Source: a virus
Lineage: Duplodnaviria > Heunggongvirae > Uroviricota > Caudoviricetes
Length of the DNA: 6,146 nt
Reading direction: 5' to 3' (one strand)
Virus record (IMG/VR): IMGVR_UViG_2706794681_000014
Positions 226 through 2,210 of this stretch are shown piece after piece; position 1 is the first letter of the stretch, and every line of letters starts with the position of its first letter. The translations under genes were made by a program, and so were the position numbers. Under the pieces are notes generated by a model. The model was not told the origin of the DNA, made no database searches, and worked only from the letters and a program-made list of their open reading frames with translations.

Positions 226-485
226 GGTTCTTTCCACCATCTGAAAAATAATTCTTTAAAATACCTGACATGTAATACAGAAAAAACACAAAACCATACC
301 TTAAATAAAAACCTGATTATCAAGCAGATATGCATGGATAAACTACAAGACGAGATATAAACCACCCTGCATTTAAATAAACAATAAACAACATCAGAAA
401 AATAATTCTGCTCTATGGTTTACATTCAAAAATATCATTTATACTTTTCAGAACATCACCAGCAAGGCATAAACAAGGAAACTAA

Positions 486-821
486 ATGAAGTGGATTGTG
501 ATTGATACAGTTATCCAGCCATCATGCGGAATATCTTTTTCAGTCATATGGAGTAAAATAAAATTAATAATCTGGTATCAATCGGATGCTTTCTTACCTC
601 CTGAAAGTATATTTACACTGACTCACACAGGCATCATGCTCAATAACAAAGTGCTACCTGTAACCATTTACAACGTAGTACCATTCAATAAAACATTCTG
701 GAATTCAATCAAAAATAGCCAGGAATGCCCTACAAATACAGATAACGTATTGAATGAATGCTTTAATAACCGTTGCACTCTGCAAATATGTCCTTATGGA
801 CTAAAACAACAAAGTCCATAA
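486..821 (+). CDS. hypothetical protein, AT-rich cargo ORF (111 aa, Cys/Trp-containing, no recognisable family)
   Basis: ATG at 486 preceded by AAGGAA (475-480) at 6-nt spacing; TAA stop at 819-821. Lies in very AT-rich DNA downstream of an AT-rich promoter-like tract (241-485). Opposite in orientation to the phage late operon. No homolog recognised by eye. Confidence 0.3.
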
Positions 822-840
822 GGAGTTTACTCACATCTGA

Positions 841-877
841 CAAAATCAATATAAACAGCCCCTCCGGAGAGGGGCTG
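841..877 (-). terminator. putative intrinsic terminator (minus strand)
   Basis: Perfect 9-bp stem CAGCCCCTC / GAGGGGCTG (856-864 and 869-877) with a 4-nt loop; on the minus strand it is followed by TTTATATTGATTTTG. No T-tract follows it on the plus strand. Confidence 0.4.
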
Positions 878-1268
878 GAGAGTGGCGCTATGTGCCATTG
901 CATGGTGCCGGGTGCCTCCCGGTGAATTCAGTACCAGCACCTGAATCCGCGATTATCCCATATACCTACTCGCTGATTGCCCCTCCGCACAGGGGGATTC
1001 ACCATGCCAGTTTCTTTTAACAAACTCCCCGCAAACCAGACAACAGTCAACCGCCTGAATTGTGAAGTATTTAAAAATTTCTCCCGCTAACTGATACCCG
1101 GCTAACAGTCTGGCGTTTTCTTTTTCAGCAACGGGAAAGCAACAACCACCACACCCGCCACCAGCACACCGTCAGCCAGCACTGACATTATCCGGCTGCT
1201 GCAATGCCATTCACAAAAACAGTAAGCAATCACTTTTTACCGTAACAGGTGATAATCCAGATATGTAT

Positions 1269-1622
1269 CTACCCCAGATGAGTAATCCGAAGTTCATCCA
1301 TACCACAGGTCCTGGCTATTCTGTTGTACTCCTGAACAAGAGCAAATAATTCTGAATTAGCAACCATGAACTCATCGCAAACCCTCTGTATAGCATCACT
1401 ATTCAGAATAATAACGTCTCTTCCCGAAAGACGATCAGGAGTACAGAACAAAACTGTCAAACGGCTGAAGGCCTTTGCTCGTGCTGCATTGACTATATCA
1501 ATACGCTGCCTAAGGATGAAACACCCCGACGCCTCATCAATATTCACTCTACCCACACCATATGAATGATAAATATTTAATGCTGAAAAAACCATTAGAC
1601 CGTATAACAAACACTCAATCAA
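1269..1622 (-). CDS. hypothetical protein (117 aa maximal ORF; 108 aa from first ATG), AT-rich cargo ORF
   Basis: Open frame ending TAG at 1269-1271. The track start is TTG; the first ATG gives MVFSALNIYHSYGVGRVNIDEASG... No convincing SD before either start. AT-rich composition distinct from the phage backbone. Could be a gene fragment or pseudogene. Confidence 0.3.
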   Translation of the reverse strand: MIECLLYGLMVFSALNIYHSYGVGRVNIDEASGCFILRQRIDIVNAARAKAFSRLTVLFCTPDRLSGRDVIILNSDAIQRVCDEFMVANSELFALVQEYNRIARTCGMDELRITHLG

Positions 1623-2210
1623 TACTTAACAGAACTTTTATTTTTGACAAACATAAAATATTTTCAACAATATCCTGAGCCAGGNNNNNNNNNNNNNNNN
1701 NNNNNNNNNNNNNNNNNNNNNNNNNNNNNNNNNNNNNNNNNNNNNNNNNNNNNNNNNNNNNNNNNNNNNNNNNNNNNNNNNNNNNNNNNNNNNNNNNNNN
1801 NNNNNNNNNNNNNNNNNNNNNNNNNNNNNNNNNNNNNNNNNNNNNNNNNNNNNNNNNNNNNNNNNNNNNNNNNNNNNNNNNNNNNNNNNNNNNNNNNNNN
1901 NNNNNNNNNNNNNNNNNNNNNNNNNNNNNNNNNNNNNNNNNNATATAGCACCCTGACTGATACTGTAGTACCTAAGGTTCCAGAAACTGTGATGTATCCG
2001 GCNNNNNNNNNNNNNNNNNNNNNNNNNNNNNNNNNNNNNNNNNNNNNNNNNNNNNNNNNNNNNNNNNNNNNNNNNNNNNNNNNNNNNNNNNNNNNNNNNN
2101 NNNNNNNNNNNNNNNNNNNNNNNNNNNNNNNNNNNNNNNNNNNNNNNNNNNNNNNNNNNNNNNNNNNNNNNNNNNNNNNNNNNNNNNNNNNNNNNNNNNN
2201 NNNNNNNNNN

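Follow-up and report, generated by a model that had tools for sequence, protein, structure and literature searches.

Probable mosaic of two prophage modules, one carrying iraL, joined at STnc100 in the stx-equivalent slot of a lambdoid late region

We analyzed a 1443-base block, with features on both strands, at positions 241-1683 of a 6,146-nucleotide stretch of Caudoviricetes DNA (IMG/VR record IMGVR_UViG_2706794681_000014; the whole stretch is referred to below as the window). The window carries the late region of a lambdoid prophage, which runs backwards across it, that is, from right to left, because every recognizable phage gene lies on the minus strand. A preliminary description, made from the letters alone, had taken the block for uncharacterized cargo in the position of the Shiga toxin genes (stxAB), with two AT-rich convergent open reading frames (ORFs) on either side of a GC-rich, ORF-poor core. 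From left to right, its features are:

241-485, plus strand: AT-rich iraL upstream region (GC 0.30), with a -10-like hexamer, transcription start, 5′ untranslated region (UTR) and Shine-Dalgarno sequence
486-821, plus strand: iraL, encoding a 111-residue RssB anti-adaptor, a paralog of IraM (NCBIfam NF007393)
847-1036, minus strand: STnc100-family small RNA (sRNA) element, co-oriented with the late operon (Rfam RF02076)
1102-1233, minus strand: gene for a 43-residue DUF3927/TciB-like protein (Pfam PF13064, phrog_1470)
1269-1547, minus strand: phrog_2873 gene, 92 residues, GTG start, inside the 117-residue ORF 1269-1622
1548-1622, minus strand: the upstream 25 codons of the 117-residue ORF, a non-coding leader or intergenic stretch (codon analysis, homologs, AlphaFold2)

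Both ORFs (486-821, plus; 1269-1622, minus) are present in the ORF list, and the composition of the block is indeed distinct from that of its surroundings: the GC content is 0.30-0.36 at 201-800, ∼0.50-0.52 at 801-1100, 0.40-0.47 at 1100-1600 and 0.32 at 1501-1700, compared with 0.50-0.56 in the flanking phage genes. When the block was compared by megablast with 5426 complete E. coli genomes, counting matches with a coverage of at least 80%, 863 of the genomes were found to carry it, and among the matches listed those of full length are 98.9-99.5% identical. Because 863 of the 5426 genomes hold annotated copies (the carriers' annotation reads IraM, DUF3927, hypothetical), the block is neither rare nor unannotated; it is common E. 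coli and Shigella prophage content, made up of iraL, STnc100 and two small phage genes, and already known as such. We consider it very probable that the interval is a mosaic moron stretch in a lambdoid late region, composed of two independent modules that share a junction at STnc100.

The ORF at 486-821 matches the NCBIfam model NF007393 (IraM subfamily) with 162 bits over residues 1-110 of 111 (cut-off 121) and the IraM chain of PDB entry 8TWD with an E value of 6e-31, and the identity of its product to K-12 IraM is 61%, the four C-terminal Cys residues all being aligned. At the DNA level, only a 139-nt stretch of iraM can be aligned to the gene (79% identity). E. coli 042 and clone D i14, a uropathogenic E. 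coli (UPEC) strain, encode in the same neighborhood a protein that shares 110 of 111 residues with that of the window, and for Shigella sonnei and S. flexneri there are entries with exactly the window sequence. Copies of iraL are at least 95% identical to one another and ∼59% (amino acid) or 67% (nucleotide) identical to iraM (PMC4045071); with 99% identity (110/111) to the clone D i14/042 protein and 61% to K-12 IraM, the ORF groups with iraL, and, judged by sequence, it is iraL. The signals needed for its expression can be located as well. The 32-nt iraL end obtained by 5′ RACE (rapid amplification of cDNA ends; PMC4045071) is found at 453-484 with 31 of 32 bases matching, and shuffled sequences gave no chance matches. 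Inspection of the sequence puts the transcription start at 453, with a -10-like TATACT (440-445) ending 7 nt upstream of it, and a good Shine-Dalgarno sequence (AAGGA, 475-479) lies 6 nt ahead of the ATG, whereas ORF 1269-1622 has none, both as the preliminary description had noted. Of the features expected of a moron, iraL has a promoter and start, a GC content of 0.30-0.36, compared with ∼0.52 in the backbone, and published log-phase expression; the hairpin downstream of it has no T-run on the plus strand and may or may not terminate the iraL transcript.

IraL has been studied in strain CFT073, where it was described as an IraM homolog with 58.9% amino acid identity, encoded in another, horizontally acquired context (Hryckowian et al. 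2014, PMC4045071), so that the label "uncharacterized" does not apply to this ORF. According to PMC4045071, deletion of iraL lowers the log-phase level of sigma-S (RpoS) in CFT073 and in S. sonnei, sigma-S in CFT073 has a half-life of ∼5 min in the wild type and ∼2.5 min in the iraL deletion strain, the interaction of IraL with RssB is seen both in two-hybrid assays and by co-purification, and the mRNA 5′ end was mapped by 5′ RACE, the sigma-70 promoter being active in log phase; the promoter region is at least 96% conserved across all carriers. The gene in the window can be linked to that of CFT073 because of the 5′-RACE sequence match taken together with the identity of 95% or more that PMC4045071 states for all copies of iraL. 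By analogy with the CFT073 and S. sonnei proteins, the IraL encoded in the window would therefore be expected to bind RssB. K-12 IraM (YcgW), a Mg2+-starvation-induced anti-adaptor, belongs to the same family (NF007393) and, like IraL, binds RssB and stabilizes sigma-S (PMC4045071), whereas IraL is active in unstressed log phase; the two proteins interact with RssB in different modes and are encoded by genes with ∼67% DNA identity (PMC4045071), and iraM has a different locus, just past the end of the e14 element. The idea that prophage AppY stabilizes RpoS via iraM was checked and proved wrong.

Compared with the iraL loci of CFT073 and S. sonnei, the gene is essentially the same, and the neighborhood, as seen in clone D i14 and 042, has the same DUF1737 stump, STnc100, DUF3927 gene, tRNAs and Q gene. 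The protein has S74 where the UPEC version has L74, and one base differs in the 5′UTR. This copy further differs in having a methylase gene and an additional ∼477 bases, most of them masked, that separate the block from the Q gene and tRNAs. In PMC4045071 the site of iraL is named the "potB genomic island," and its nature as the stx-equivalent late region of a prophage is not noted there.

The core of the block (878-1268), described as ORF-poor, turns out to be occupied by members of an Rfam and a Pfam family, namely STnc100 (847-1036, minus) and the 43-residue DUF3927 gene (1102-1233, minus). The match to RF02076 scores 132.4 bits (gathering score 47, E value 6.7e-30) and covers model positions 1-206 of 206, positions 987-1006 (minus) are identical to a published STnc_100 quantitative PCR primer, and the element has a fold energy of -74.6 kcal/mol (z = -2.3). 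A terminator scan finds an intrinsic terminator at its end, with a hairpin at 877-856 of 9 pairs (7 GC) followed by TTTATATT on the minus strand. In 933W, a Stx1c phage, phi296, JLK-2012, mEp460 and STEC1585, STnc100 follows the stx slot and precedes nanS-p, and it has been placed 75 nt past stx2 (PMC12370729). Its pairing with stx2B is a speculation in one paper, and a 2026 preprint relates STnc100 to PasD and uses it as a marker of phage origin. In several genomes, the site corresponding to 892-1017 on the plus strand, antisense within the element, carries a partial "hypothetical protein" pseudogene in the PGAP annotation, probably a spurious call. Several copies can occur in a single prophage late region: STEC1585 has four (at 3575-3787, 5547-5742, 5806-6005 and 6067-6256 of the locus that we retrieved) around different cargo genes, three of them in near-tandem, and ATCC 11775 has two (4070-4279 and 4557-4747).

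The modular structure of the block was examined by pairwise comparison with the loci that we had fetched and with a spread sample of the genome hits, using a query whose position 1 is window position 241. Individual E. coli genomes contain up to 12 places matching this query, and the partial matches fall into discrete classes:

query 1-825, 1-837 or 1-920: iraL and STnc100 only; right break at ∼1065-1160 in the window
query 659-1443: STnc100, the DUF3927 gene and the phrog_2873 gene only; left break at ∼899 in the window
query 611-837: STnc100 alone; O157 strains have up to 9 such places in one genome

The breakpoints cluster at the edges of STnc100. The block is thus two modules that circulate independently and are joined at STnc100 as a shared junction, and the idea of a single cassette that replaced stx is not supported by this synteny comparison. 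Because the breakpoints cluster at its edges, STnc100 may also be a site that promotes the exchange of modules.

The remainder of the window provides the frame in which the two modules are set:

52-240, minus strand: nanS-p stump (the "DUF1737" ORF; Pfam DUF1737, 57 bits)
1684-2211, no strand assigned: spacer, mostly masked (N), as read from the sequence
2212-2459, minus strand: phage tRNA cluster with a CAT anticodon, Arg-TCG and Arg-TCT (ARAGORN and Rfam tRNA; the same trio as in 933W)
2500-3744, minus strand: N6/N4 DNA methylase gene, part masked (domain match)
3720-3917, minus strand: ORF of 65 residues between the Q and methylase genes (ORF list)
4146-5273, minus strand: Q-type antiterminator gene, part masked (PF03589, 184 bits)
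5270-5644, minus strand: RusA gene (Pfam PF05866)

As the preliminary description had stated, the block lies between the three phage tRNAs and the DUF1737 ORF. The tRNA cluster, in which the CAT-anticodon tRNA is tRNA-Ile (ileZ) by annotation in related records, forms the upstream edge of the stx-equivalent slot. The 65-residue ORF gives a weak winged-helix (TrmB-like) match below the cut-off (E value 0.0026), and PGAP annotates a 65-residue "hypothetical protein" at its position in related prophages.

That the slot is equivalent to that of stx is borne out by comparison with 933W and a Stx1c phage, which have the same gene frame. The annotated order in 933W is Q, pR′, ileZ, argN, argO, stx2A, stx2B, nanS-p, S and R, and Rfam puts STnc100 75 nt downstream of stx2B, with AsxR directly ahead of nanS-p on the other strand; in the window, the order is Q, methylase, tRNAs, cargo, STnc100, cargo and the nanS-p stump. 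The Stx1c phage has Q, stx1AB, an STnc100-like sequence, nanS-p and a holin gene, phi296 has tRNAs, STnc100 and NanS, and a stx-less Traversvirus has the same frame as 933W and the window. The first slot, between the tRNAs and STnc100, holds stx2AB in 933W and the phrog_2873 and tciB-like genes here, which are thus in the position of stxAB. The second slot, between STnc100 and the nanS-p start, holds the AsxR sRNA in 933W and a protein gene here, iraL having both the interval and the orientation of AsxR. When the AsxR interval of 933W (2278-2537 of the retrieved locus) is set beside window positions 486-1036, both elements are seen to be opposite to late transcription. Because iraL and AsxR share interval and orientation, the comparison suggests a preferred site beside STnc100 for elements antisense to the late operon, iraL being transcribed in that direction and AsxR presumably so. 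Two further differences from 933W are that nanS-p is truncated here and that STnc100 is further from the Rfam consensus (132 versus 208 bits). In tciA-tciB phages such as JLK-2012, a DUF3927/TciB-like gene is likewise situated between the tRNAs and STnc100, just upstream of the latter; the TerB-like tciA of these phages is absent here, and phrog_2873 directly precedes tciB, with a 35-nt gap. Citrobacter and some E. coli relatives have the order phrog_2873, tciA, tciB, holin.

The left-hand flank does contain a DUF1737 domain, as the preliminary description had it, but is a gene stump and not a lysis-associated gene. Residues 6-48 of the ORF are 93% identical (40/43) to residues 1-43 of the 654-residue NanS-p esterase of STEC1585, after which the two diverge; the conserved start corresponds to the Met at 225, and PGAP annotates the equivalent in E. 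coli 042 and clone D i14 as a partial pseudogene. Judged from its sequence, the ORF is the 5′ stump left by truncation of a gene for NanS-p, a SASA-family 9-O-acetyl esterase. On the right-hand side, the boundary of the block is not fully readable because 1684-2211 is mostly masked (1685-1942 and 2003-2213), leaving a readable island of 60 nt at 1943-2002. The spacer is an insertion of ∼477 nt relative to E. coli 042, where the positions corresponding to 1684 and 2214 are only 53 nt apart, and the same spacing was found in no complete E. coli genome of the collection, a search in which only the 60-nt island could be placed. Because this island directly adjoins an STnc100 copy in E. coli 2D and in ATCC 11775, the mask may hide a second STnc100 copy.

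Two small genes make up the cargo between the tRNAs and STnc100. The 43-residue protein matches PF13064 (DUF3927) with 95.6 bits (cut-off 25) and the "TciB-like" family phrog_1470 with an E value of 8e-13, contains one hydrophobic helix, VLADGVLVAGVVVVAFPLL, and corresponds to the PGAP call WP_000562553.1 at the same place in E. coli 042. The name "Tci" (inhibition of cell division or colicin resistance) is an annotation label, and the literature search found no experiment behind it for DUF3927/TciB. For the second ORF of the preliminary description (1269-1622, minus), homology searches, which had identified the first as IraL, led to a family without known function: the phrog_2873 profile scores 194.8 bits over residues 1-92 of the 92-residue protein encoded at 1269-1547. 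A word-indexed search returned only near-identical E. coli and Shigella copies and two proteins at 56% identity, while exhaustive phmmer over 1.84 billion representatives gave 20 hits and a profile search 31. None of these relatives has a Pfam domain. The named sources are E. coli, Shigella, Citrobacter and Salmonella, to which the genome scan added a 2.7-kb contig labeled as a Bacillota metagenome-assembled genome. Codon analysis was carried out for the 92-codon core against four diverged loci, with the ratio of nonsynonymous to synonymous substitution rates (dN/dS) calculated where dS was not saturated and the two off-frames serving as controls. The core has a dN/dS of 0.16-0.27 and a clear excess of third-position differences, the off-frames have values of 0.8-1.2 and 7-15 stops, and the insertions and deletions among homologs are whole codons. 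The gene is protein-coding and under purifying selection, so the coding signature that the preliminary description had named as decisive is present over the core. It nevertheless has no call in the PGAP annotations of clone D i14, STEC1585 and E. coli strains 042 and 2D.

These results bear on the possibility that a decaying prophage has left the block behind as inert remains, with ORFs that have been kept only through recent spread and nothing that is functional in the host. Several features fit this possibility: nanS-p is cut to a 43-codon stump, PGAP marks partial pseudogenes in the region, the TerB-like tciA that lies between phrog_2873 and DUF3927 in relatives is absent, and the identity of 99% or more among the 863 genomes leaves little time for selection to have acted. 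We nonetheless regard this explanation as quite unlikely, given that CFT073 and S. sonnei have a functional IraL at this locus, that the iraL promoter region is so strongly conserved in all carriers (PMC4045071), that phrog_2873 shows purifying selection when compared with homologs of 33-63% amino acid identity, and that all three ORFs are intact in the window.

A further question is whether the second ORF is a 117-residue protein that starts from the TTG at 1622, as first described. The frame is open from 1622, the homolog P0014 from a Shiga-toxigenic E. coli (STEC) strain is open over the equivalent stretch and also has a TTG start, and some gene callers produce versions of 108-118 residues. 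On the other hand, eight diverged homologs are 91-95 residues long and align from codon 26 (the phmmer homologs of this length are 34-64% identical), the 25 upstream codons have a dN/dS of 0.6, compared with 0.22-0.27 for the remaining 92 codons, with differences spread evenly over the codon positions (11/10/12), and the exact 92-residue product with a GTG start is found at NCBI on 210 contigs, as a hypothetical protein of Enterobacteriaceae. AlphaFold2 points the same way: the 92-residue form, modeled from a 13-sequence alignment, has a predicted local distance difference test score (pLDDT) of 91.5, whereas the 117-residue form has one of 70, with values below 50 at residues 1-24. The longer form is therefore very unlikely, and the preliminary description was right that there is a gene here and wrong about its extent, which is 1269-1547 (minus; GTG start; 92 residues). 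The protein is predicted to fold into an antiparallel helix/β-hairpin/helix structure (helix 3-35, a short β-hairpin and helix 50-81). Although the model is confident, fold searches with it matched only generic coiled-coil hairpins, and no solved relative was found by sequence (best E value 0.34).

In prophages of E. coli, Citrobacter and Salmonella, relatives of the phrog_2873 gene are located between the Q and holin genes, and TerB-like TciA and DUF3927 often come next. In some STEC-type prophages, a gene for an AraC-family helix-turn-helix regulator of 241-242 residues lies 22-130 nt upstream of the phrog_2873 homolog (164-889 in locus L007, 4164-4889 in L009 and 5142-5870 in L016 and L017). 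A fixed pairing of the two was considered and rejected: they are adjacent in these four loci and not in the Citrobacter, Salmonella and plasmid contexts or in the window. A relative with 34% identity is found at 5001-5276 of three E. coli contigs (L023, L024 and L025) that carry a Rep3 gene and a PapB/usher/chaperone fimbrial operon, a setting more like that of a plasmid than of a prophage. The 90%-identity cluster that includes the 92-residue protein also has entries of 149 residues named "50S ribosomal protein L9," which looks like an oddity of clustering or naming.

Finally, that the block is an uncharacterized virulence or toxin cassette that has replaced stxAB and is strongly expressed on induction is hardly tenable, even though the position is truly stx-equivalent, the composition is atypical and the phrog_2873 and DUF3927 proteins are without known function and oriented with the late operon, because the larger of the ORFs encodes IraL, a characterized regulator-binding protein and no toxin, on the strand opposite to late transcription, because neither ORF has a match to a toxin, effector or defense family (no similarity to StxA, StxB, AB5 or other toxins in Pfam or NCBIfam, and none to defense systems in PADLOC, in line with what the preliminary description had said of Stx and effector families), because the block is two separable modules, and because iraL is rarer in enterohemorrhagic E. 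coli (EHEC)/STEC than in commensals (PMC4045071). For iraL, it is already largely refuted. High expression on induction, which the preliminary description had expected of the block, does not apply to iraL, which opposes late transcription and has its own sigma-70 promoter active in log phase. In all, the earlier observations were largely accurate and the positional reasoning sound; as for unknown content, neither the main ORF nor the core bears the claim out, and it holds only for the re-delimited second ORF, which is conserved and belongs to a listed family.

In the mosaic that we favor, module A (∼241-850, plus) would consist of iraL together with a sigma-70 promoter of its own, set between the nanS-p start and STnc100 and directed against the Q-dependent late transcript. 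Because of this promoter and this orientation, iraL would be expressed in lysogeny and not on induction. In the lysogen, IraL would be made during ordinary growth, bind RssB and block the delivery of sigma-S to ClpXP, raising the sigma-S level in log phase, an effect for which experiments on this gene in CFT073 and S. sonnei provide the evidence. Once the prophage is induced, antiterminated transcription of the late genes would cross iraL in the antisense direction and probably silence it. Module B (∼1080-1684, minus), in the position of stxAB, would encode the 92-residue phrog_2873 protein and the 43-residue single-pass membrane peptide; because both genes point the same way as the late operon and neither has a convincing promoter to itself, their expression most likely accompanies that of the late genes, shortly before lysis. 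STnc100 would close module B with its strong intrinsic terminator and serve as the conserved sequence at which phages exchange modules.

Several observations weigh against parts of this interpretation. A simple consensus scan, which could miss one, found no sigma-70-like site just upstream of 1036 (minus) or of module B; as none was found just upstream, STnc100 is most likely made from a longer late-strand transcript, as a 3′-end-derived or processed sRNA. The T-run of the STnc100 hairpin is on the minus strand only, so that iraL has none on the plus strand, and one base in the mapped start region and one residue of the protein differ from the UPEC iraL. Of the 528 bases beside the tRNAs, 468 are masked and could conceal a further STnc100 copy or a promoter. 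The clustering of breakpoints fits a shared junction, and an active promotion of recombination by STnc100 goes beyond it. The coiled-coil hairpins returned by the fold searches are generic, and the literature search found no functional test of STnc100, DUF3927 or phrog_2873.

A more speculative extension of the mosaic is that the 92-residue protein is a late-expressed factor with a specific host or phage target and that STnc100 is a portable terminator and recombination junction for stx-slot cargo; we regard the two together as conceivable but rather improbable. Because some phrog_2873 homologs are located 22-130 nt downstream of AraC-like regulator genes in prophages, one possibility is that the protein partners or antagonizes such regulators.

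The cargo flagged as unknown is accounted for by existing literature and databases, and what remains after the analysis is the role of one sRNA and of one small family of phage proteins, both already catalogued. The phrog_2873 gene also marks an annotation gap, being under selection yet uncalled by PGAP in reference genomes. The identification of iraL puts a general-stress-response gene on the phage map, in a lambdoid late region and beside the Shiga toxin slot, a placement that was not discussed in PMC4045071 (2014), where the gene would be active in the lysogen and, on induction, would be opposed by late transcripts running antisense to it. The clustering of breakpoints at STnc100, in turn, provides a testable lead on how cargo may be exchanged at the stx locus.

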